Assembly: GCA_964546425.1 (NCBI GenBank)
Contig: CAZJJW010000002.1
Location: forward strand, 1 to 53,455
Direction: 5' to 3'
DNA from: an uncultured Candidatus Saccharibacteria bacterium
Lineage (GTDB): Bacteria; Patescibacteriota; Minisyncoccia; Phycocordibacterales; JACOZG01
Length of the DNA: 53,455 nucleotides
Each line of letters opens with the position of its first letter. Position 1 is the stretch's first letter. The notes below the pieces were generated by a model. That model was not told where the DNA came from, did no database searches, and saw only the letters and a list, made by a program, of their open reading frames with translations. Positions 18,155 through 36,093 of the stretch are shown here, piece after piece. The position numbers were made by a program, and so were the translations under genes.

Positions 18155-18182
18155 TTGATAAAAATGGATAAATTAGTATAAT
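18155..18182 (+). promoter_or_regulatory. Sigma70-like promoter for the wzm-wzt operon
   Basis: TTGATA (18155-18160), 16-nt spacer, TATAAT (18177-18182). The -10 box overlaps ATG 18181, which argues for the downstream ATG 18202 as the start. Confidence 0.5.
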
Positions 18183-18201
18183 GGTCAAACCACTTGAACC
18201 A

Positions 18202-19017
18202 ATGACCACTGTTATCCAAGCCAAAAAGCCGCTAGCTTTAGAATTTTTCAAAGAACTCTGGTCTAGTAAGGAGCTCCTGTATTTTTTTACCTGGCGGGAT
18301 CTGAAAATCCGCTACAAGCAAACGGTTCTCGGTGTGATGTGGGCACTGTTTCAACCCTTTATCACCATGGTGATTTTCACTGTCTTCTTCGGCAAGTTTG
18401 GCAAAATTCCTTCCGACAACATTCCTTATCCGGTCTTCGTTTTTGCCGGCCTTCTCTTGTGGCAACTATTTTCCGCCACACTTCTCCAGGCGAGCGGCAG
18501 TTTGGTGGGAAACCAGAATTTGTTAACTAAGGTTTACTTTCCGCGGTTAATCTTGCCCATCTCATCGCTTTTCTCTAATCTGGTGGATTTTTTTATTGCC
18601 TCGAGCATCCTGGTGGGTTTGATGATTTATTACAGTTATATTCCCCACCTGATCGGATTAACCCTGGTGCCTTTGCTGGTGATCATCACATGCGTTTTTG
18701 CTGTCGGGCTAGGATTGTTTTTAGCTTCACTCAATGTTAAATATCGGGATATTAAATATATCCTTCCATTTTTTGTTCAGATTATGATATTTCTAACGCC
18801 GGTAATTTATCCACCGAGCATTCTGGGCAGGTACTCCTGGCTTTTGGCCATCAATCCGCTCACGGGCGTTATCAAAGCGATGCGAGCGGCATTATTTGGC
18901 GGCCAGCCAATTAACTGGTTGCTACTGTTTCTGTCTGGCTCGACGTCGTTGGTCGTTCTCTTATTTGGCTTCATCTATTTTAAGCGAACGGAAAGGCAAT
19001 TTGCTGACCTAATTTAA
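18202..19017 (+). CDS. wzm: ABC-2 type polysaccharide export permease (Wzm/TagG family)
   Basis: ELLYFFTWRDLKIRYKQTVLGVMWALFQP signature and six TM helices. Alternative start at 18181. Confidence 0.8.
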   Translation: MTTVIQAKKPLALEFFKELWSSKELLYFFTWRDLKIRYKQTVLGVMWALFQPFITMVIFTVFFGKFGKIPSDNIPYPVFVFAGLLLWQLFSATLLQASGSLVGNQNLLTKVYFPRLILPISSLFSNLVDFFIASSILVGLMIYYSYIPHLIGLTLVPLLVIITCVFAVGLGLFLASLNVKYRDIKYILPFFVQIMIFLTPVIYPPSILGRYSWLLAINPLTGVIKAMRAALFGGQPINWLLLFLSGSTSLVVLLFGFIYFKRTERQFADLI

Positions 19018-19019
19018 TC

Positions 19020-20282
19020 ATGAGCGTAATCATCGAAATAAAAAATATCTCTAAATGTTACTCAATCAATCGGTCAAATGAGTACTATACCGCCCTGCGC
19101 GATGTTCTAACGAATATCTTTAAGTCGCCATGGCGGTTTCTCTCAACTAAAGTTCGCGAAGTCGCCGGCTATAACAAGAAAGATATTTTTTGGGCATTAA
19201 AAAACATCAATTTCACGGTCGAGAAGGGTGAGATCGTCGGTATCATTGGTCCTAATGGCGCCGGCAAGTCTACTTTGCTTAAGATTCTCAATCGCATTAC
19301 CGAACCGACCTCGGGCGAAATAACAATTCACGGCAAGATATCATCATTGCTTGAAGTCGGTACCGGTTTTCATCCGGAGTTAACAGGTCGAGAAAACATA
19401 TTTTTCTCTGGAGCTATCTTGGGAATGAAACGGCGCGAGATTGTCCGCAAATTTAATGACATCGTTAAATTTGCCGAGATGGAGCAATTCATTGACACGC
19501 CAGTCAAACGTTATTCTTCCGGTATGCACGTGCGACTAGCCTTTTCGGTGGCTGTCCATATGGAGCCGGACATTCTTTTAATTGATGAGGTTTTGGCGGT
19601 GGGGGATATTAGCTTTCAGAAAAAATGCTTGGAGAAAATTCACGAAGTAGCAAGAAAAGACGACCGGACGATCATCTTTGTTAGCCATAATCTTGATGCG
19701 GTTCAGAATTTGTGCGAACGGTCCGTCTATCTAGAGCACGGCGAGGTAAAAAAGATCGGCCCAACCGACCAGGTGATAAAATCCTATCTCGATTGGCAGA
19801 TGATACTTGACCAAAAAGCCGTCCACGAATTTCCCCCGTTGCTAGGTAAGCCCTACCAGATTATCAAGGTGGTAATTAAAAATCAAGATGGAATGCCGCA
19901 GACTAATCTAGAGGCGGGGGAACCTTTTATGGTGGAAGTGACTTACAATACAAAAGTTGATGAGGCCACTTTTTGGCTTAACTTACAATGTGTCAATGAG
20001 CACGGTAACATTATTTTTTTCTCCCGCGATACCGACCGTAATCCAGAACTGATGACCCGACGCAGCAAGGGTCGCCATGTTTCCACTTTCACCTTCCCGG
20101 CAAATCAAAATGTCTCACTCAATAATGGGCGCTACTTTTTAACCATCCGAATCCACCAGGACCCAGATACTGAAGTTACGGTGCCGATTAAGATTGAGGA
20201 CACAAGGGGTCAATTCGGTGGCTTCCCTGGAGTGGTACTCGTCGGTCAAGCTTGGCATAATAACGAAAAATTATCACTATGA
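19020..20282 (+). CDS. wzt: Polysaccharide export ABC ATPase with C-terminal glycan-binding-type domain (Wzt/TagH family)
   Basis: Walker A GPNGAGKST, signature YSSGM, Walker B LLIDEVLAVGD. An extra ~160-aa beta-rich C-terminal domain follows, as in Wzt proteins that recognise chain-terminal residues. Confidence 0.85.
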   Translation: MSVIIEIKNISKCYSINRSNEYYTALRDVLTNIFKSPWRFLSTKVREVAGYNKKDIFWALKNINFTVEKGEIVGIIGPNGAGKSTLLKILNRITEPTSGEITIHGKISSLLEVGTGFHPELTGRENIFFSGAILGMKRREIVRKFNDIVKFAEMEQFIDTPVKRYSSGMHVRLAFSVAVHMEPDILLIDEVLAVGDISFQKKCLEKIHEVARKDDRTIIFVSHNLDAVQNLCERSVYLEHGEVKKIGPTDQVIKSYLDWQMILDQKAVHEFPPLLGKPYQIIKVVIKNQDGMPQTNLEAGEPFMVEVTYNTKVDEATFWLNLQCVNEHGNIIFFSRDTDRNPELMTRRSKGRHVSTFTFPANQNVSLNNGRYFLTIRIHQDPDTEVTVPIKIEDTRGQFGGFPGVVLVGQAWHNNEKLSL

Positions 20283-21043
20283 AAATCTTTGGTTTTGTCG
20301 CGGTCAGGACTTATTCCAGCAGATTGCCAGGCAAGATGCTCGCTACCATCCGGGGCAAAAGAGTAATCGAGCATGACATCGAGAGGGCCAAAACGATTGG
20401 TGGGCTTGATGGTTTGGTGGTTTGTACCTCGCTGGGAAAAGAAGACGATGTGTTAGAAGAAATTGCGAACAAGCAGGGGGTGTTTTGTTTTCGGGGTAGT
20501 CTCGAAGACAAACTAGCGAGATTCCTTGGGGCCGCGGACAAATTTGGAGCCGACTATTTTGTCAACATTGATGGCGATGACCCGTTTTGCGATCCGGACC
20601 TAGTGGAACAAGCAATCAGGCAGATCAAAGCAGAATCCTGTGATGTTATTAAGTCACCTGACGGTCTGGTTTGCGGCGCTTTCACCTTTTTAATCAGTGT
20701 GGCCGCGCTCCGCCAAGTTTGTGAGATGAAAAACACGACCGATACCGAAATGTACGAGGTTTATTTTTTAGAAAACGGTCGTTTCAATGTTAAGGACTTG
20801 AAGGTTACCGAGCCAATCTATTTTAACGACCGGGTACGTCTCACTCTTGACTACCAAGAAGATTTAGATTTTTTCAAGCGCGTTTTTGATGAATTGGAAA
20901 TGGACTCGAATACGTTACCCTTGCGCCAGATTATGACTTTGCTCAAACAAAAGCCGGAAATCGCCACCATCAACTTCTCCCGCCATAAGGATTATGTTGC
21001 TAAACGGGAGTTGATGCGTAAAAAGACCAAAATTAAAAATTAA
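20279..21043 (+). CDS. Cytidylyltransferase (SpsF/NeuA-like, acylneuraminate cytidylyltransferase family)
   Basis: N-terminal AVRTYSSRLPGKML (the R..S.RLP.K signature of this family). ATGA overlap with wzt. Confidence 0.7.
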   Translation: MKIFGFVAVRTYSSRLPGKMLATIRGKRVIEHDIERAKTIGGLDGLVVCTSLGKEDDVLEEIANKQGVFCFRGSLEDKLARFLGAADKFGADYFVNIDGDDPFCDPDLVEQAIRQIKAESCDVIKSPDGLVCGAFTFLISVAALRQVCEMKNTTDTEMYEVYFLENGRFNVKDLKVTEPIYFNDRVRLTLDYQEDLDFFKRVFDELEMDSNTLPLRQIMTLLKQKPEIATINFSRHKDYVAKRELMRKKTKIKN

Positions 21044-25936: not shown

Positions 25937-26515
25937 TTAGGCGGGCGGGAAGTCGTTTTCGTTAATGCCGCGGGCATCAAGTACCATCTCGGCAAACTCG
26001 CGGATGGCGCCAAAGCCGCCGGGTCGCTTGGTGATAATGTGGGCCAGCGGTCTGACTGTCCGGGTGGCATTGGCGGGGCAAACGATAATTCCTTCATTTT
26101 GGATGGCGAGCATGGCGTCACGGTCGTTGATATCATCACCCATGTAAATGGTGTCGACAAAAGTTAGCTTATTTTCGGCTAGCCATGATCTAATGGTTTC
26201 CAGTTTTGCCCCCTTGCCCCCCTGTTTGGTGAATAATTCTACCTTCGGCCAACGCCCACTTTTGGCGGATGTTAAAGTGTTGAATCGGTCAACGATGCCG
26301 CCCAACGGCTCACCCTCACCAGAAACAAAAACGATTTTTATGCCGATTTCGCGGAGGAAGGAGATTCCTTGTCCGTCTTGATGACCGCGCGATTTCGAGA
26401 TGATCACCGCGCCATCGGCTAGCGTTGAGCGAGTTTCTTGTCCGTCAAAGAAGACGCCGTCGGCATCGAGAAACAAAACTTTAAAGTTTTTCAGTTTTTC
26501 CTGGATATTTTGCAT
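25937..26515 (-). CDS. KdsC-family HAD phosphatase (ulosonate-phosphate phosphatase-like)
   Basis: FLDADGVFFDG (DxDGxxxD) and GDDINDRDAM. Start placed at ATG 26515 (MQNIQEKLKNFKVLFLD), because the track's TTG 26545 lies inside the upstream terminator T-run. Confidence 0.8.
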   Translation of the reverse strand: MQNIQEKLKNFKVLFLDADGVFFDGQETRSTLADGAVIISKSRGHQDGQGISFLREIGIKIVFVSGEGEPLGGIVDRFNTLTSAKSGRWPKVELFTKQGGKGAKLETIRSWLAENKLTFVDTIYMGDDINDRDAMLAIQNEGIIVCPANATRTVRPLAHIITKRPGGFGAIREFAEMVLDARGINENDFPPA

Positions 26516-26540
26516 CGTCTTATTATCGCTAAAAAATTGA

Positions 26541-26577
26541 AACAAGAAAAGCCCCAGGCGACTTGTCGCCTGGGGCT
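26541..26577 (-). terminator. Rho-independent terminator of gene C
   Basis: 10-bp stem gccccaggcg/cgcctggggc (26551-26576), followed on the minus strand by TTTTCTTGTT. Confidence 0.7.
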
Positions 26578-26601: not shown

Positions 26602-27651
26602 CTATTTCTCAACCAGACCATGGATGGCTTCGGCGCCCGCCTCCGGTCGGAATTTGGCGCTGGCTGCCCAGCGCCGACTGTTCTTGTCATACCGCTCCCA
26701 ATCCAGCCAACTGAGATGTTCGGGCTCAGTGAGGCGGGGGATTACACCCATAGCAACAAGCGGGTAAGCGCTTAACCCGCATTCTTCTTGATAGAGTCGT
26801 TTTGCCATCGGCCCCCAGACCGAGATTGCTCGCCGGCCATGATGAAGCGCGATCCGGAGTGGCGTCGTGAAGGCGCCGACGGTGATATCGCACATTCGGG
26901 CCAAAGCGTCAGTGCCCAGTTGTCCGCGATGAGTAAAGGACAAGCCCTCAGTCAATCGGGCAAACTCGGGTAGGACATGGGCATACTGCGGGTATTGGTC
27001 CGCGTCGGCATACTTGGGGTGCCAGAGGCTGTAGTAACAGACGAACTGACTCGGATCATTCTCGAGCCGTAGGCTGTTTGCCACCAGTCTGACTATTTCG
27101 AGCACGTTGTCTGGGTGATCCGGGACCACCATGATTGAGGTTTTACCAGCCGTAGCCGTATCGAAGGCCGCCAAGGCCTCTTTAGCCGTAGCGGGTACGC
27201 TGGTGTCCACTGTCGAGGCAATGTCGCCAACAATGGCACGCCGCCGGGCGATATTTACGGTCATCATGAAGTCGTCCATCACCAGCGTCAGATTGGGGAC
27301 GAAGCCTTGAAGCCGCGACAAGGCATTCCAGGTATCTTCGCAAGTCACGACTGGGATTTCGAGCGCCCGGGCAGTCCCAGCGAAATCGAGTTCCCAGTTG
27401 ATCGGGGAAGAGCAGCCGACGACTACCACCTGTGGGCGTTCTGTAACCACCACAGATGGGCGTTGTGGTTGGAGTTGATCACTGCCACGGACAATGATGG
27501 TCAGGCCGGATTCCTCCGCCAAACCTATCGCTTTGCCCTCGACAGCCAACTTCACCTCGTGGCCCTGTTCGGCCAGGAATTTGAGTACCGGCAGGCCTAT
27601 CTTGGCCGCCATAATGTCTCGGAAGACACCCAGAACCTTAATTCGTTCCAC
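26602..27651 (-). CDS. Uncharacterised protein C (349 aa), probably GT-B fold (WecB/NeuC-like N-terminal pattern)
   Basis: GTG start preceded by GGAAAGGCGG. IKVLGVFRDIMAAKIGLPVLKFL resembles [18 protein letters not shown] of UDP-GlcNAc 2-epimerases, but the catalytic boxes are not conserved. The N-terminus is duplicated at 28436..28567. Confidence 0.5.
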   Translation of the reverse strand: MERIKVLGVFRDIMAAKIGLPVLKFLAEQGHEVKLAVEGKAIGLAEESGLTIIVRGSDQLQPQRPSVVVTERPQVVVVGCSSPINWELDFAGTARALEIPVVTCEDTWNALSRLQGFVPNLTLVMDDFMMTVNIARRRAIVGDIASTVDTSVPATAKEALAAFDTATAGKTSIMVVPDHPDNVLEIVRLVANSLRLENDPSQFVCYYSLWHPKYADADQYPQYAHVLPEFARLTEGLSFTHRGQLGTDALARMCDITVGAFTTPLRIALHHGRRAISVWGPMAKRLYQEECGLSAYPLVAMGVIPRLTEPEHLSWLDWERYDKNSRRWAASAKFRPEAGAEAIHGLVEK

Positions 27652-29540: not shown

Positions 29541-30722
29541 ATGCGCCTTTCCCCAGACGATCCGACTTCAGATAAGCTCGTTGATTGTCCGACCCCGTAT
29601 TACCATTTGCTTGAGCATCAGCCGGTCGACACAAAGCCCAGAATGGCGATTTTTTTAGGTAATGACTTCAAGAACATGTCTAAAACTCTCGACCGCGAGG
29701 CTTATATTGAGCAGACAAATCAGTGTTTGGATTACATGAGACGAGAATGCCGAGGTTGCAGTTTATACTACAAACCTCACCCCAATGAGACCGACGAGTA
29801 TTCTTTTTTTGACCTTGATGGGTTTCAGGTGATTGGTAAGGAGGATAACGAGATTGCCGAAATATTTTTTTGGAAAAATCTCTCCTCTATAAAATACGTT
29901 TTTTCGATCGCTTCCACGGCAGTTTGGTCGGCTTACAATTTGGGACTGAATGCCTATACCTTCATCCGACCGGTTGAGGCGGTAATCGGCAAAGATATCG
30001 CTAGCGCCGGTGACTATTTTGATGAATTGCCAAGTTCGTTCTTTATCACTAATTTTGATCAGCCGCTTCGGGAGAACCGAAAAATCCTAGTCCCAGACCA
30101 CTTGGCCGAAGGCCGTTTTCTTAGAGACTTGGAATCAGGAAATGACGTTTGGTTTTTGGTCGGCGATCCTGGTATGTTGGTGATCTACATTTCTTTCGTT
30201 AATCTAATCAAGAAAAATTTTCCCCATAAAAAAATCAACCTAATTCTTCCCCGGCACCATCGCTGGGGACGAGTTAAAGAGAAACATTATCGAAGTTACT
30301 TTAATCAAATAGTTAGTTTTCCTCGTAGCTTGTATTCCTTAAAGCCCAGTCGATTCATCGAAATTATTAAGACAATTTTGGCGATAAAGAGATTTAAGCT
30401 GCCCCCTCAAGACGTTTTACTCCTGTTTGCCAACAGTAATTTAGTTGAGAATTGTTTCGTGTCATACTTCCCGAATAAAAAAATCGCAGTTCAATTCAAA
30501 GATTACTTCGAGATAAACTATGGACTAAAGGAATCAGAGATTCTCCGGGGAGAAAAATTGAAGGCCAGATTCACCAGTATAATGTTCAATCTTATAATTG
30601 AACCAATTTTGGGTTTATACCGAAGTATATATCTAGAATATGGTGACGGCCGGGTGATTAATATCGTGCGATTTTTAAAACCGGCCACCAAAATTTATGA
30701 CCGGATTTATTTGTTGTGTTGA
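29541..30722 (+). CDS. Uncharacterised protein P1 with YKPHP motif, paralogue of 34912..36093; possible CMP/CDP-sugar-dependent transferase
   Basis: Shares many blocks with P2: IF.GNDF, TN.CLDY.RR.C.GC.L.Y.PHP.E, IKY.FS..ST, INLI..RHHRW, YSLKP, ENCF.SY, EP.LGL. SD AAGGGGG lies 7 nt upstream. The function is inference only. Confidence 0.55.
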   Translation: MRLSPDDPTSDKLVDCPTPYYHLLEHQPVDTKPRMAIFLGNDFKNMSKTLDREAYIEQTNQCLDYMRRECRGCSLYYKPHPNETDEYSFFDLDGFQVIGKEDNEIAEIFFWKNLSSIKYVFSIASTAVWSAYNLGLNAYTFIRPVEAVIGKDIASAGDYFDELPSSFFITNFDQPLRENRKILVPDHLAEGRFLRDLESGNDVWFLVGDPGMLVIYISFVNLIKKNFPHKKINLILPRHHRWGRVKEKHYRSYFNQIVSFPRSLYSLKPSRFIEIIKTILAIKRFKLPPQDVLLLFANSNLVENCFVSYFPNKKIAVQFKDYFEINYGLKESEILRGEKLKARFTSIMFNLIIEPILGLYRSIYLEYGDGRVINIVRFLKPATKIYDRIYLLC

Positions 30723-30760: not shown

Positions 30761-32665
30761 ATGATCAGTGACTCCCTTACCTATATTCCCCGCGCTGAAG
30801 TTGACCGCCTGCGGAAAAAAATTAAGGACCCAATCCTCCGAGCCTCAATCTTGGCAAATGTCTTTCGCTTAAATGCCTTATCGATGATAATGGAATCGGG
30901 ATCGGGCCACGTGGGATCATCTTTTAGCGCGATGGATATTGTTACTTGGTTGTGGCTGGAAGAAATGCAAAACCCCAATGACAATAAGAAGCGAAATGCT
31001 GATATTTATTTTTCGTCAAAAGGTCATGATGCCCCCGGCTTGTATGCTGTGATGATCGGATTGGGAAAGCTTAAAGAAGCTCTCCGACATCGCCTGCGAA
31101 GGATTGATGGTTTGCCCGGTCATCCTGACGTTCGGACCCCATTTGTGATCACCAATACTGGCGCCCTGGGTATGGGTTTGGCCAAAGCGCGGGGTATGGC
31201 TGGCGCTCGGAGACTGGCTGGAAAAAGTGGACGAATTTTTGTGTTGCTTGGCGACGGGGAACTGCAGGAAGGCCAAAACTGGGAGTCTCTCCAGCCAATT
31301 GCCAACGGAGGATTCTCGGAAATTACGGCGATAATTGATTTCAACAAGATTCAATCGGACACCTATGTCAAAGACACGAGTGACCTTGGAAATTTAGAGG
31401 CAAAATTTAGAGCCTTTGGTTGGGAGGTGTTTAGAATCGACGGCCACAATATGAGAGAAATAAAAGCTGTCCTTCAAAAAACAAAACGCGGTATCGGGAA
31501 ACCAAAAGTGATTATTGCCGACACCATAAAAGGAAAAGAGGTGTCATTTATGGAAAAAGTTGCTTCCGACGGATTCTATAAGTTTCATTCGGGGGCGCCG
31601 TTGCCGGAGCTCTATAAAAAGGCCGCCGAGGAAATTATAAATAGCGTAGAATCAGCCTTGCGTCCATTAGGGCTTGAGGTCGCGATTGAGCAAAAAGTTC
31701 CGATTCCTAAGCGAGCAACCTCGCCTCGGGCGGAGAGACTGATCGTTGCCCATGGGGATGAACTGGTAAAACTGGCCCAAAAGCATCCTAAAATTGTAGC
31801 GTTTGATGCAGACTTGGTGCTGGATACGGGACTAGTGCCCTACTCGAAAACCATTCCCCAGCGGTATGTCCAAGCCGGAATTGCCGAGCAGTACATGACC
31901 TCCATGGCTGGCGGTTACGCCTTGAAAGGGATGTTGCCCGTTGTTCACTCGTTTGAATGTTTTCTTTCCACTCATGCCAATGCTCAAATCTATAACAATG
32001 CGACCGAGCGGACTAAGATTATTTATGTTGGTTCGCTGGCCGGGCTTCTGCCCGCTTCCCCCGGCCACTCTCACCAGGCGCTCCGCGGCATTTCTCTGGT
32101 CGGCTCCATTCCGGGACTGACGATGATTCAGCCAGCCAATGAAGCAGAAGCCCGGCTGGCAATTCGCTTTGCGGTGCTCCAAAACAAAGGCAGTTCTTAT
32201 ATTCGTTTGGTCACTCTTCCCATTGAATTACCATATGTTCTGCCAAGGGGCTACGTCTTAAAAAGAGGGCAGGGTGTAAAAATCCGCTCGGGAAAAGAGG
32301 CCGCGATTGTTGCTTATGGCCCGACCTTGCTCAAAGAGACCTATCTGGCCGCTGAAATTTTAGAACAAGCGGGATTACGGGTGGCGGTTTTTAATATGCC
32401 ATGGCTTAATACCATTGATGAAGCGTGGTTTAAGAAAACTTTCGCTAAGTTTAAAAAGATTGTTACTCTTGACGACCACTTTGTCTCCCAGGGCCTTGGG
32501 GTCCAGATTGCGGCAATGATCACCCGAGGCAGATTGAAATCGAGAATCCTATGTCTGGGGATTAGAGAAATTCCCGCCTGCGGCACACCAGCCGAGGTGC
32601 TCGCCTACCATCAACTCGATGCGATGAGTCTTTCCAAACAAATCAGATCTTTTTTGCATGATTGA
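30761..32665 (+). CDS. Transketolase-family ThDP enzyme (N- and C-terminal halves fused)
   Basis: SGHVGSSFSAMDIV, ThDP motif GDGELQEGQNWES, pyrimidine-binding GIAEQYMTSMAGGYA. 634 aa. Confidence 0.85.
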   Translation: MISDSLTYIPRAEVDRLRKKIKDPILRASILANVFRLNALSMIMESGSGHVGSSFSAMDIVTWLWLEEMQNPNDNKKRNADIYFSSKGHDAPGLYAVMIGLGKLKEALRHRLRRIDGLPGHPDVRTPFVITNTGALGMGLAKARGMAGARRLAGKSGRIFVLLGDGELQEGQNWESLQPIANGGFSEITAIIDFNKIQSDTYVKDTSDLGNLEAKFRAFGWEVFRIDGHNMREIKAVLQKTKRGIGKPKVIIADTIKGKEVSFMEKVASDGFYKFHSGAPLPELYKKAAEEIINSVESALRPLGLEVAIEQKVPIPKRATSPRAERLIVAHGDELVKLAQKHPKIVAFDADLVLDTGLVPYSKTIPQRYVQAGIAEQYMTSMAGGYALKGMLPVVHSFECFLSTHANAQIYNNATERTKIIYVGSLAGLLPASPGHSHQALRGISLVGSIPGLTMIQPANEAEARLAIRFAVLQNKGSSYIRLVTLPIELPYVLPRGYVLKRGQGVKIRSGKEAAIVAYGPTLLKETYLAAEILEQAGLRVAVFNMPWLNTIDEAWFKKTFAKFKKIVTLDDHFVSQGLGVQIAAMITRGRLKSRILCLGIREIPACGTPAEVLAYHQLDAMSLSKQIRSFLHD

Positions 32666-32696: not shown

Positions 32697-33539
32697 ATGA
32701 AAAGAGTTGCCAGGAAAAATAACAGCAGATATCCTAAAACGGTGGCTTTCGTCCAGGTCCGAACTGGTAGCTCTCGTTTTCCCAGTAAGGTTTTGTACAA
32801 AATCGGCAAAAGAGAGATTTTTCTGATCCAATTAGACCGGATGAAACGGTCCCGACGGCTCGATCAAATTGTGGTGGTTACCACCGCTAAAAAGGAGGAT
32901 GACGTTATTGTCTCCTTGTGTCGAAAAAACAAAATCCCTTATTTCCGCGGCAGTGAGCATGATTTGCTCGATCGGTATTATAAAGCCGCCAATAAATTCA
33001 AAGCCGAATTGGTCGCAAAAATTCCTTCGGATGAACCGCTGATTGATGGAGAAGTGATCGATGAAGTAGTGGGAAAGATGCAAAACAATCTGGATAAATA
33101 TGATTTTGTCAGCAATATCCATCCACCGTCTTTTCCGGACGGACTGGATGTCGAAATCATGCCTTTTAAAATTCTTGAAATCGCTTGGAAAAAAGCCAAA
33201 AAACCGCACGAGCGTGAACACGCCACGCCCTATATTTGGGACAACCCTAAACGTTTCCGGATTGGTAGTGTCACAAATCGGTATGGAAGTATGTTTATGA
33301 CCCATCGCTGGACGATGGATTATCCTGAAGACTTCGAATTTTTCAAGGCCGTTTTTTCTCATTTTAAAGATAAAAAGGGTTTTTTGATGAAAGACGTTTT
33401 GGATTTGCTCCAGAAACACCCGGAAATTGGCGCTATCAATGCCAGACACGTTGGCATCAATTGGTTTCGGACGGTGCCGGGGGAATTGAAGACGGTTAGC
33501 CCGGAGTTTTACCGTCAAGATACGGAGTCTTCACCATAA
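32697..33539 (+). CDS. Cytidylyltransferase (SpsF/NeuA-like family), second copy
   Basis: FVQVRTGSSRFPSKVL signature. Family-level resemblance to 20279..21043. Confidence 0.75.
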   Translation: MKRVARKNNSRYPKTVAFVQVRTGSSRFPSKVLYKIGKREIFLIQLDRMKRSRRLDQIVVVTTAKKEDDVIVSLCRKNKIPYFRGSEHDLLDRYYKAANKFKAELVAKIPSDEPLIDGEVIDEVVGKMQNNLDKYDFVSNIHPPSFPDGLDVEIMPFKILEIAWKKAKKPHEREHATPYIWDNPKRFRIGSVTNRYGSMFMTHRWTMDYPEDFEFFKAVFSHFKDKKGFLMKDVLDLLQKHPEIGAINARHVGINWFRTVPGELKTVSPEFYRQDTESSP

Positions 33540-34909
33540 TGAAAAGTAAATACAGTTTAGAACCGGTCTTCGTGCCTAAAGTAAGGACCAAATACCGGAC
33601 AATAAAGACTAAATTGCCGGTACCGCTGTCATTGCCCATCTTTAGGTCACTGATGGCGAGTGAGCCGGAATCTAAACGAGGTCAACCGCCCGTAGTCTGG
33701 GACCGAGCCGAAGGCTTTCAAGTCTACGATAAATGGGGAAATAAATGGATCGATTTCTCTTCAGGGGTGTTGGTGGCCAATGCCGGTCACGGCCGCAAAG
33801 AAATTATCGGTGCTATCACGAAGGCGCTAGGGCGGGGAATGCTCACGACTTTTGCTTTTGTCCATGAAAATCGCATGAAATTGACGCAAGAACTCCAAAG
33901 GATGTCTCCCGATCCGTCAAATTACCAGGCGGCTCTTTTTAGTGGCGGAAGTGAAGCTGTAGAATATGCTATTAAGCTTGCGAAGACACACGGAATTGAA
34001 AAATATGGTCCAAAAAGGGTATACATAGTATCTTTTATCAATGCTTTTCATGGAAGCACTCTCGGTTCCCAGCTTGCGGGGGGTAAGGAAAAACTAAAGA
34101 AGTGGACCATAGGTGAGGGGAAGACTTTTGTTCAAGTTCCTTTTCCAGACGGCTACAAAAATAAAAATACTTCCTTTAACCTTTTTCTTGAGAGTCTTAA
34201 GGTATTAAACATCAAGCCCGAGCAAATCGCAGGCGTCATAGTCGAATCATACCAGGGCGGGGGGCCGGACTTTATGCCGGTAAAATACGCCAAGGAACTG
34301 CAAAATTTCTGTAATTCAAATGATATCGTGATGATCTTTGATGAAATGCAGTCTGGTTTTGGAAGAACGGGAAAATGGTTTGCTTATGAATATTATGGCG
34401 TAAGCCCCGATTTGATTACTTGCGGCAAGGGCATTTCTTCGTCGTTACCTCTTTCGGCGGTGATTGGCAGAAAAGATATTATGGCGCTTTATCCGGCTGG
34501 CGCGACGCTCACTACCCATTCGGGAAATCCGATTTGCGTTGCCGCCGCTCTCGAGAATATAAAAATTTTGAAAAAAGAAAAGCTGGTAGAAAAATCTAAG
34601 AAGCTGGGAAAAATTCTGCTCAAGGGGCTGCAGAGAATTCAGAAACGATACTCCAAAGTGCTCGGTGTTGTCCAAGGCCGAGGTTTGGTGGCGGGCATTC
34701 AAGTAGTAAAGCCGGGCACCAGAGAACCGGATGGGGAGCTGGCGCTCCGGATCAACGAAGCCTGTTTTCACAAAGGCTTACTGATGTTTTCACCGGCCGG
34801 AGTGGCTGGCGAGTGCGTAAAAATTGCCCCGCCGCTTGTGATATCAGAGGAAGCCTTGAGAGAAGGAATCCAAGTGCTTGAAGAAGTTTGCGGCGAAATT
34901 CTCGGCTAA
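33539..34909 (+). CDS. Class III PLP-dependent aminotransferase (GSA-aminomutase/GABA-AT-like)
   Basis: SGGSEAVEYAIKLA, DEMQSGFGRTGKWFA, CGKGISSSLPLSA (PLP Lys). The start overlaps the upstream stop (TAATG). Confidence 0.85.
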   Translation: MKSKYSLEPVFVPKVRTKYRTIKTKLPVPLSLPIFRSLMASEPESKRGQPPVVWDRAEGFQVYDKWGNKWIDFSSGVLVANAGHGRKEIIGAITKALGRGMLTTFAFVHENRMKLTQELQRMSPDPSNYQAALFSGGSEAVEYAIKLAKTHGIEKYGPKRVYIVSFINAFHGSTLGSQLAGGKEKLKKWTIGEGKTFVQVPFPDGYKNKNTSFNLFLESLKVLNIKPEQIAGVIVESYQGGGPDFMPVKYAKELQNFCNSNDIVMIFDEMQSGFGRTGKWFAYEYYGVSPDLITCGKGISSSLPLSAVIGRKDIMALYPAGATLTTHSGNPICVAAALENIKILKKEKLVEKSKKLGKILLKGLQRIQKRYSKVLGVVQGRGLVAGIQVVKPGTREPDGELALRINEACFHKGLLMFSPAGVAGECVKIAPPLVISEEALREGIQVLEEVCGEILG

Positions 34910-34911
34910 AT

Positions 34912-36093
34912 ATGAAAAGCGATTTCGATTACATGCGGTGTCCATATTATTGGCTTCTTTTAGATAAAAACGAGACTTCAAATAATATTGAAAAGGAAGA
35001 AAAGCTGGCGGTTTTTTTTGGCAATGATTTTTTCAACACTACCGATATTGCTTACGATAAATTTATCAAAAGAACCAACGAGTGTCTTGATTATGTCAGA
35101 AGAAATTGCCAAGGTTGCAAATTGATTTACCGCCCGCATCCGGAAGAGCGGAAGGAGATCGAGTTGCTTGATTTAGAATCTTTCGCGGTCGAAAGAGATG
35201 GTCAGTCGGCCGAGGAATTTATTTTAGCCAACAAGAGCAAAATCAAGTACCTCTTCTCTTTCTGTTCCACCTCTTCAATCGCTGGGCTAAGTCTGGGTGT
35301 CAATTCCTATATTTTTTATAGATGTTTCAGTGATATTTTCGACGGCATTAATAAAATCTTTGTCGACAATTATTTGAAGGGTCTGCCTGAAAATTTCTTT
35401 ATCAAAGATTTCAACGCGTCATTAATCGAGAATAAGATAGAGATTAAAAAAGATTTGCCGACCGAAGACAGTTTCCGAAAAATTCTGACTGAACACAGTG
35501 GCCCGGTCTGGTTCATCATTCAAGAAAATCGGTATTTGCTAATCATTGAAGGCTTGGCTAAACTAATAAAGTCAATTGTCCCGGACCGGAGAATAAATTT
35601 GATCGTCTCGCGCCATCATCGCTGGACGGATGAGAAACTGGTGGAACTAAAAACCAAATTTGATGAAGTGATCGCGATCCCCCGAGTTTTCTATTCGCTG
35701 AAGCCGAAACGACTCTGGGCGGCCTGGCAGATCGCCCGAAAGATCAGAAAGATAAAACTTGATCAAGGAGCAATTCTCATCGGCTTAGCTCACCACGATT
35801 TTATTGAAAATTGTTTTATGTCTTACAATAAGCGCAATTTTAAAATCGCGGTTTTGTCAGAATCAGTCTGGCGCTTAAACTTCAAAACCGAGACTTTGGG
35901 TTTCGATACCCAACAATTCATGTTTGATAAAGCGGGCATCTTCTATAATTACTTTTTTGAGCCAATGTTGGGTTTAGCTAAAACCAAGTTTGTACATCAC
36001 CAGAAGGGAAGCTGGGCGTACTTTATTAGACTTCAAAAACCGATAGAAGAAATTTATGATCAAGTTTTTTTAATCAGGAATTCGCCGTTGTAA
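34912..36093 (+). CDS. Uncharacterised protein P2 with YRPHP motif, paralogue of 29541..30722
   Basis: Start placed at ATG 34912, 2 nt after the upstream stop (the track ORF starts at 34888 inside the aminotransferase). Conserved blocks as listed for P1. Confidence 0.55.
   Translation: MKSDFDYMRCPYYWLLLDKNETSNNIEKEEKLAVFFGNDFFNTTDIAYDKFIKRTNECLDYVRRNCQGCKLIYRPHPEERKEIELLDLESFAVERDGQSAEEFILANKSKIKYLFSFCSTSSIAGLSLGVNSYIFYRCFSDIFDGINKIFVDNYLKGLPENFFIKDFNASLIENKIEIKKDLPTEDSFRKILTEHSGPVWFIIQENRYLLIIEGLAKLIKSIVPDRRINLIVSRHHRWTDEKLVELKTKFDEVIAIPRVFYSLKPKRLWAAWQIARKIRKIKLDQGAILIGLAHHDFIENCFMSYNKRNFKIAVLSESVWRLNFKTETLGFDTQQFMFDKAGIFYNYFFEPMLGLAKTKFVHHQKGSWAYFIRLQKPIEEIYDQVFLIRNSPL

Follow-up and report, generated by a model that had tools for sequence, protein, structure and literature searches.

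Two paralogous proteins of a Saccharibacteria bacterium represent a putatively permuted GT-B family of presumed CMP-ulosonic-acid transferases

Computational analysis of a 53,455-nucleotide stretch of DNA (the window) from an uncultured Candidatus Saccharibacteria bacterium indicated that two of its proteins, P1 and P2, are probably diverged paralogues of an unannotated and apparently unpublished family of permuted GT-B proteins, which falls within the HP-motif sialyltransferase-like superfamily and whose members are presumed to be CMP-ulosonic-acid transferases. Glycosyltransferases have two main folds, one of which is GT-B, and to our knowledge the order of an acceptor lobe (A) followed by a donor lobe (D) is treated as invariant, or universal, among GT-B enzymes. 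In P1 and P2, the donor lobe is predicted to come first. The two proteins most likely attach the acidic sugar produced by the neighboring genes to a cell-surface glycan.

The P1 and P2 genes and their sugar locus

P1 (29541..30722, + strand) was identified as a 393-aa sialyltransferase-like GT-B protein with a putatively permuted, donor-lobe-first (D-A) architecture on the basis of its ORF, its AlphaFold2 model, fold matches, and a permuted alignment to the relative P0055. P2 (34912..36093, + strand) is a 393-aa paralogue with the same predicted architecture, comprising a D lobe at residues 2–195 and an A lobe at residues 197–391. Each gene is an uninterrupted ORF of 393 codons. The ATG of P1 at 29541 is preceded by AAGGGGG 7 nt upstream and lies one base past the stop codon of a NeuB-like gene, and the ATG of P2 at 34912 lies two bases past the stop codon of a class-III aminotransferase gene. 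BLASTP aligned the two proteins over 384 aa with 35% identity and 55% positives (E 3e-74). The first-pass annotation of this DNA had described them as paralogues of about 393 aa that are roughly 30% identical by eye; the paralogy and both ORFs were borne out, while the identity figure proved slightly low. The sequence blocks that it had listed as shared, including CLDY.RR, Y(K/R)PHP, FS..ST, HHRW, YSLKP, ENCF.SY, and EP.LGL, were found in both proteins, as was the proposed HP...ST motif pair, an invariant H-P followed by S-T about 45 residues on. The distance from H to S is 45 residues in P1 (H80–S125) and 43 in P2 (H76–S119), where the HP motif (H76-P77) is encoded at 35137-35142 (+) and S119-T120 at 35266-35271 (+). 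The HP motif lies in the N-terminal half of both proteins, as had been noted. The duplication that gave rise to P1 and P2 is old, as the two belong to separate D-A subclades, each of them well supported.

The public gene call for P1 (P0003, 359 aa) is 34 codons shorter than the ORF, omitting window positions 29541-29642, and the ESM Atlas record likewise begins at residue 35. The omitted N-terminus is kept among homologues (P19, PYY.LL) and consists of a strand and a helix matching the first donor-lobe elements of canonical relatives. Therefore, the long form starting at ATG 29541 is the better call.

Directly upstream of P1 is the only NeuB-family ulosonic-acid synthase gene of the genome (28661..29539, +; PF03102, 243 bits). 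Its 292-aa product spans the complete PF03102 barrel and lacks a C-terminal SAF domain. The scores fall far short of the equivalog cut-offs for NeuB (245 vs 400 bits) and PseI (177 vs 340), and this SAF-less synthase probably makes a non-standard ulosonic acid. Between P1 and P2 lie genes for a transketolase-family enzyme (30761..32665, +; Transketolase_N, Transket_pyr, and Transketolase_C; NCBIfam NF004559, 368 bits against a cut-off of 488), a CTP_transf_3 cytidylyltransferase that is presumed to be a CMP-sugar synthetase and is one of two in the genome (32697..33539, +; PF02348, 78 bits), and the class-III aminotransferase (33539..34909, +; PF00202, 295 bits), which translationally abuts P2. 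These coordinates agree with the earlier statement that P1 and P2 flank this trio. A TylC3-type C-methyltransferase gene comes after P2. Two ORFs on the - strand of the locus, 26602-27651 (349 aa) and 25937-26545 (202 aa), had no Pfam or NCBIfam match; the 202-aa ORF recurs in two related loci (L004 and L010).

The locus also contains the second CTP_transf_3 cytidylyltransferase (20279..21043, +) and a Wzm/Wzt ABC exporter (18181..20282, +; PF01061, PF00005, and PF14524), in which Wzt ends in a Wzt_C carbohydrate-binding domain (PF14524; gene at window 19020-20282). A Wzt_C domain is a feature of systems that recognize a chain-terminating residue. Its presence implies that a specific residue at the chain end controls export, and a candidate for the cap recognized by Wzt is the ulosonic acid that P1 or P2 would add.

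The host genome has a size of 598 kb and is 97% complete. P1 and P2 are its only two copies of the family, and its single NeuB-family gene and two CTP_transf_3 genes all lie within the window. Six-frame searches of this genome revealed no member of the KpsC/S, TagF, KdtA, or polyST families, and the six-frame search with PF07388 gave no match at E<=0.01. P1 and P2 are thus the only recognizable candidates for CMP-/CDP-sugar transferases in the genome. Apart from P1 and P2, the only hint of a nonulosonate-related transferase, and a faint one, is a sub-threshold MptE-like match of 17.8 bits (PF01973, Maf/flagellin-glycosylation family) in a 412-aa open frame (G000 contig 7, 13364-13702, - strand).

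Placement of the family by sequence and fold

No Pfam or NCBIfam model reached its threshold for P1 or P2, with NCBIfam returning nothing for either protein, so the first-pass annotation was right in not placing them in a named family. P2 matched the polysialyltransferase model PF07388 at 20.7 bits, compared to a cut-off of 23.3, with its residues 22–121 aligned on positions 197–299 of the 316-position profile, which is the C-terminal third; P1 gave no match to PF07388. Weak matches to PF07388 were found in 6 of 15 family members and weak matches to PF07922 (GT52) in 3 of 15. A PF07388 match above the cut-off and over most of the length, as GT38 membership would entail, was not obtained. Searches of PDB sequences with P1, P2, and the family profile returned chance matches only (E >= 0.3), and hhalign of the family profile against NeuS gave weak matches (E 0.016 and 0.033) confined to the stretch from HP to S-T. 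The nearest ESM Atlas clusters were polysialyltransferase-family and GT52. Sequence similarity to the characterized sialyltransferases is below every curated threshold (20.7 vs 23.3 bits for PF07388; E 0.016 for hhalign). The relatives in databases are called "hypothetical protein" wherever a name exists, and no Pfam domain was found in the relatives of acceptor-first (A-D) order either.

P1 was modeled with good confidence by AlphaFold2 from an alignment of 15 sequences (pLDDT 85.7, pTM 0.87), and the model was compared with 48,161 PDB representatives. The best structural matches of residues 18–176 were the C-terminal CMP-binding lobes of the sialyltransferases 5wc6 (GT38), 2ilv (GT80), and 2yk4 (GT52). 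The N-terminal half around the HP motif is thus modeled as a Rossmann lobe whose best matches are CMP lobes of these three families, consistent with the GT-B phosphate-binding role that the first-pass annotation had proposed for the motif. The model comprises two Rossmann-like lobes, each of which matches GT-B lobes, as in a GT-B protein: a donor (CMP-binding-like) lobe at residues 1–198 (29541..30134, +), closed by a helix at 187–198 whose counterpart in canonical relatives is the C-terminal helix, and an acceptor-type lobe at residues 202–393 (30144..30719, +) with conserved W204, H239, W242, D291, E303, S308, and EPxLG (354–358). The acceptor-lobe fold matches had low Z values of 7–8, and the pTM of 0.87 suggests a defined packing of the two lobes in P1.

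Residues of the predicted active site

Conservation was counted over 90 full-length D-A and A-D proteins. In the donor lobe, His80, the residue of the motif first picked out by eye, is kept in 89/90 proteins, P81 in 90/90, E107 in 87/90, and S125 in 89/90; in the acceptor lobe, the counts were 85/90 for W242, 83/90 for D291, 80/90 for H239, 78/90 for S308, and 71/90 for E303. The CDP-contacting residues of the polysialyltransferase MhPST are H291 in the HP motif, at the alpha-phosphate, E323, at the hydroxyls of the ribose, and the phosphate-binding pair S339/T340 (PMC5517516). The HP motif of P1 (His80-Pro81; 29778..29783, +) can be assigned from its conservation, from the CMP-lobe matches, and from hhalign, which placed YRPHP.E on IKPHPKE of E. 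coli K1 NeuS and the S-T block on NeuS TSSS (E 0.016; NeuS from locus L022), and P1 thus has the HP motif of the HP-motif sialyltransferase-like superfamily. Glu107 (29859..29861, +) is a candidate ribose-binding residue and the putative counterpart of MhPST E323, and Ser125-Thr126 (29913..29918, +) is a candidate phosphate-binding pair, the putative counterpart of S339/T340 on the grounds of conservation and spacing. The distance from H to E is 27 residues in P1 and 32 in MhPST (H291–E323), and that from H to S-T is 45 and 48 (H291–S339/T340), respectively. The downstream Glu and Ser-Thr of the superfamily thus appear to be present in P1, with an equivalence drawn from spacing and hhalign rather than from residue-level superposition. 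We infer that His80 (His76 in P2), the Ser-Thr pair, and Glu107 hold the CMP leaving group.

Besides HP, D/E-D/E-G is the second defining motif of bacterial sialyltransferases (PMC2169525). This catalytic-base motif of GT38, GT52, and GT80 was not recognized in the acceptor lobe, nor did the beta5-alpha5 loop contain a conserved acidic residue or pair as a counterpart of MhPST E153. The acceptor lobe could not be aligned with NeuS by sequence using hhalign. EPxLG (354–358) is conserved only in the permuted clade, its Glu occurring in 14 of 44 canonical forms, and its site lies about 124 residues before HP in a canonical relative, compared to 125 in NmB polyST. H239, E303, and D291 are candidate catalytic bases in the acceptor lobe.

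Circular permutation of the two lobes

Judging from the alignments and models, the motif pair is N-terminal because the family is a circular permutant of a GT-B sister family of canonical order. Sequential whole-chain Foldseek superposition of P1 on GT-B structures gave TM values of only 0.16–0.23 with an rmsd of about 19 A, while the corresponding TM for a canonical relative was 0.44–0.50. Because the lobes match singly and the whole chain superposes badly, both GT-B lobes appear to be present in the wrong order.

Relatives were collected by an exhaustive profile search of 1.84 billion representatives, which yielded 337 proteins. The profile was split at P1 residue 200 into a donor part and an acceptor part, both derived from D-A sequences, and applied to 164 proteins gathered, of which 51 had the order D-A and 63 the order A-D, the latter also being about 400 aa long. 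The crossed lobes were supported in these split-HMM comparisons by E values of 1e-8 to 1e-34. By BLASTP, P1 11–203 aligned with residues 224–411 of P0055 (E 2e-16) and P1 203–392 with residues 14–205 (E 1e-12), and the same crossed pattern was observed between P2 and P0056 (E 1e-18 and 2e-15).

The secondary-structure strings of the P1 and P0056 models are cyclic shifts of one another. The N-terminus of P1 (strand 13–16, helix 21–24, strand 35–39) corresponds to P0056 209–238, just past the inter-domain linker of P0056, and the end of P1 is made up of the last three acceptor-lobe strands (362–392), matching P0056 164–195. Helix 187–198 of P1 corresponds to the long C-terminal helix of P0056 (379–401) and is followed after four residues by strand 1 of the acceptor lobe (203–206). 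From this matching of elements, it is concluded that the old termini would have been joined and the old linker cut. The canonical GT-B connectivity, in which the acceptor lobe comes first, the donor lobe second, and a C-terminal helix returns to the first lobe, is thus not seen in the model of P1. Both halves are homologous in swapped order, within one ORF and with cyclically shifted secondary structure, as expected of a natural permutant.

In an unrooted maximum-likelihood tree of the concatenated lobes of 90 full-length proteins, a single branch (SH-aLRT 96) separated the D-A forms from the rest, with one change of state. The tree is compatible with a single permutation event; as it is unrooted and the profiles were made from D-A sequences, the direction of the change, with A-D as the ancestral order, rests on the universal A-D order in GT-B.

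Fused or tandem intermediates (A-D-A-D) were sought among the longer relatives, where one long protein, P0165, but no clear intermediate was found. In P0165 (822 aa, Logan assembly), a D-A module occupies residues 429–821 and is preceded by 428 residues without a Pfam match in which only a faint HP-region match at 258–279 was detected; this N-terminal part may represent an additional transferase that is highly divergent and fused ahead of the module. In a Saccharibacteria MAG, two D-A genes stand in direct tandem (L006:9869-12353), which shows that tandem duplication occurs in the D-A family and could supply raw material for a duplication-and-truncation route to permutation. A literature search for circular permutation of GT-B found no paper on the subject, and only the GH70 glucansucrases came up.

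Distribution and gene context of the relatives

A pattern derived from an 8-sequence alignment was used to scan 185,579 species genomes, which revealed 15 D-A genes, spread over 14 loci, along with five A-D loci. The D-A genes belong to Yanofskybacteria, Saccharibacteria, Paceibacterota, and other Patescibacteria, and the A-D loci to four Chthoniobacterales/Verrucomicrobiota and one Parcubacteria bacterium. The D-A order was also found in 46 full-length cluster representatives. Among 400 other genomes drawn at random from the phylum, none had a homologue, and the family is therefore sporadic. Two D-A copies occur in four genomes, once in tandem.

Co-occurrence with NeuB and cytidylyltransferase genes, which the first-pass annotation had regarded as informative, is frequent: a NeuB-like gene lies within 10 kb of the D-A gene in 10 of the 14 related CPR loci, usually together with CTP_transf_3. 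Other common neighbors in the D-A loci are a B12 radical-SAM gene, DegT, and SDR, and genes of the P2 type recur beside a set of GT9, DUF6165, GMD-like, and C-methyltransferase genes. The canonical-order relatives in Chthoniobacterales (L016–L019) have unrelated neighbors (methyltransferase, GNAT, OMP, kinase). No sugar-activation genes were found at the Verrucomicrobial locus L016, and NeuB had no match in two of the four Verrucomicrobial genomes with A-D genes. Therefore, the superfamily is not tied to NeuB-type sugars, and the donor sugar may vary within it.

The gene at L019 has an N-terminal extension of about 210 aa without a Pfam match. P0049 (643 aa, ENA) combines a D-A transferase with a Methyltransf_24 domain at its C-terminus (477–594), a fusion that points to methylation of the transferred sugar or the acceptor sugar in some lineages.

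Comparison with known systems

By analogy, the P1/P2 family may work like a GT38, GT52, or GT80 sialyltransferase. The GT38 polysialyltransferases (MhPST, PDB 5wc6/5wcn; E. coli K1 NeuS; N. meningitidis B polyST) differ from P1 and P2, in which the donor lobe is predicted to be N-terminal, no conserved D/E-D/E-G was found across the family, and scores are under the Pfam threshold. The setting is also different, since the host of P1 and P2 is a CPR bacterium and the sugar would come from a SAF-less NeuB with transketolase and aminotransferase partners. The family thus falls outside GT38 by its model score and its domain order and, to date, by the lack of a recognizable D/E-D/E-G motif. GT80 (PmST1, PDB 2ilv) and GT52 (Neisseria NST/Lst, PDB 2yk4) have the canonical domain order, unlike P1 and P2, and their catalytic Asp lies within the D/E-D/E-G motif, which is not recognizable in P1 and P2.

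The canonical-order sister family, represented by P0055, P0056 (NCBI MFC1920727.1, Chloroflexota, "hypothetical protein"), and loci L016–L019, resembles P1 and P2 in that both lobes are homologous (pairwise E 1e-12 to 1e-18) and the proteins are about 400 aa long. Conserved H, P, E, S, W, and H residues are common to both groups, and neither has a Pfam, NCBIfam, or functional name. Unlike P1 and P2, the sister family has normal GT-B connectivity with a long C-terminal helix and is found outside CPR, often with no NeuB nearby. The beta-Kdo transferases WbbB (GT99) and KpsC (GT107) are likewise HP-motif enzymes and transfer an ulosonic acid from a CMP-sugar onto a glycan. The chain capped by WbbB is exported via Wzm/Wzt, with a carbohydrate-binding domain in Wzt, and the window encodes a comparable transporter.

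Proposed function and alternative explanations

The CMP-lobe matches, the linkage to NeuB in 10 of 14 loci, and the lack of any other recognized transferase of this kind in the genome all lend support to the earlier proposal that P1 and P2 are candidate CMP-/CDP-sugar transferases. In the mechanism that we propose, the CMP-binding Rossmann lobe would be followed by the former C-terminal helix and, directly after this helix, by strand 1 of the acceptor lobe, and the chain would begin and end at the site of the normal GT-B inter-domain linker. Each enzyme would bind a CMP-activated ulosonic (sialic-acid-like) sugar supplied by the adjacent synthase and cytidylyltransferase, the His, Ser-Thr, and Glu residues would stabilize the CMP leaving group, and a base of the acceptor lobe would activate a hydroxyl of a lipid-linked glycan acceptor. 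The Wzm/Wzt transporter is the likely export route for the product glycan. That both paralogues are old and have retained their motifs suggests that they form different linkages or use different acceptors, for example, in initiation versus extension or capping.

A more far-reaching version of this proposal is possible but doubtful as a whole. It holds that the family is a natural, conserved GT-B permutation for which no published precedent was found, with the linker cut, the lobes tied only via the former C-terminal helix, and a different hinge, and that the recurrent pair of a P1-type and a P2-type enzyme forms the initiating and the extending or capping enzymes of an undescribed ulosonic-acid surface polymer of CPR, recognized by the carbohydrate-binding domain of Wzt for export.

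Among the alternatives, it is unlikely that the donor is CDP-activated or another phospho-donor, as for a TagF/TarL-type polymerase or hexose-phosphate transferase, or is CMP-Kdo instead of a CMP-nonulosonic acid. It is very unlikely that P1 and P2 are GT-B-fold sugar-nucleotide-modifying enzymes of the ulosonic-acid pathway, of the NeuC/WecB 2-epimerase or hydrolase type: the 50 best matches of the P1 model included no epimerase, the set of H-P, E, and S-T is that with which sialyltransferases bind CMP phosphate and ribose, and the sequence-level leads all point to sialyltransferase families. A swapped order that merely reflects a donor lobe joined to an unrelated C-terminal domain, or a gene-calling or assembly artefact, is scarcely credible, given that only the low Z (7–8) of the acceptor-lobe fold matches speaks for it, whereas the C-terminal half aligns to the canonical N-terminal half (E 1e-12 and 2e-15; split-HMM E 1e-8 to 1e-34), the ORF runs uninterrupted between complete neighbor genes, and the D-A order recurs in the 46 cluster representatives and in 15 genes at 14 independent loci. 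The unrelated C-terminal domain, the NeuC-like epimerase, and the assembly artefact were accordingly set aside on alignment, fold, and ORF evidence.

Significance of the permuted family

The reading of P1 and P2 as permuted, presumed CMP-ulosonic-acid transferases has consequences for both enzymology and annotation. If it is true, the permuted enzyme closes on its substrates with a different hinge, and a conserved natural permutant together with an unpermuted sister family would allow a direct test of the roles of chain connectivity and hinge geometry in GT-B catalysis. A permuted GT-B protein could also serve as a template for engineering split or re-ordered transferases. About 340 database proteins, now "hypothetical" where named at all, are flagged here as sialyltransferase-like, and profile models that are sensitive to domain order, such as PF07388, miss these proteins. 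No literature on nonulosonic acids in Patescibacteria was found in our search. For the CPR/Patescibacteria, a group with essentially unknown surface glycans, P1, P2, and their relatives provide candidate transferases for orphan ulosonic-acid pathways.
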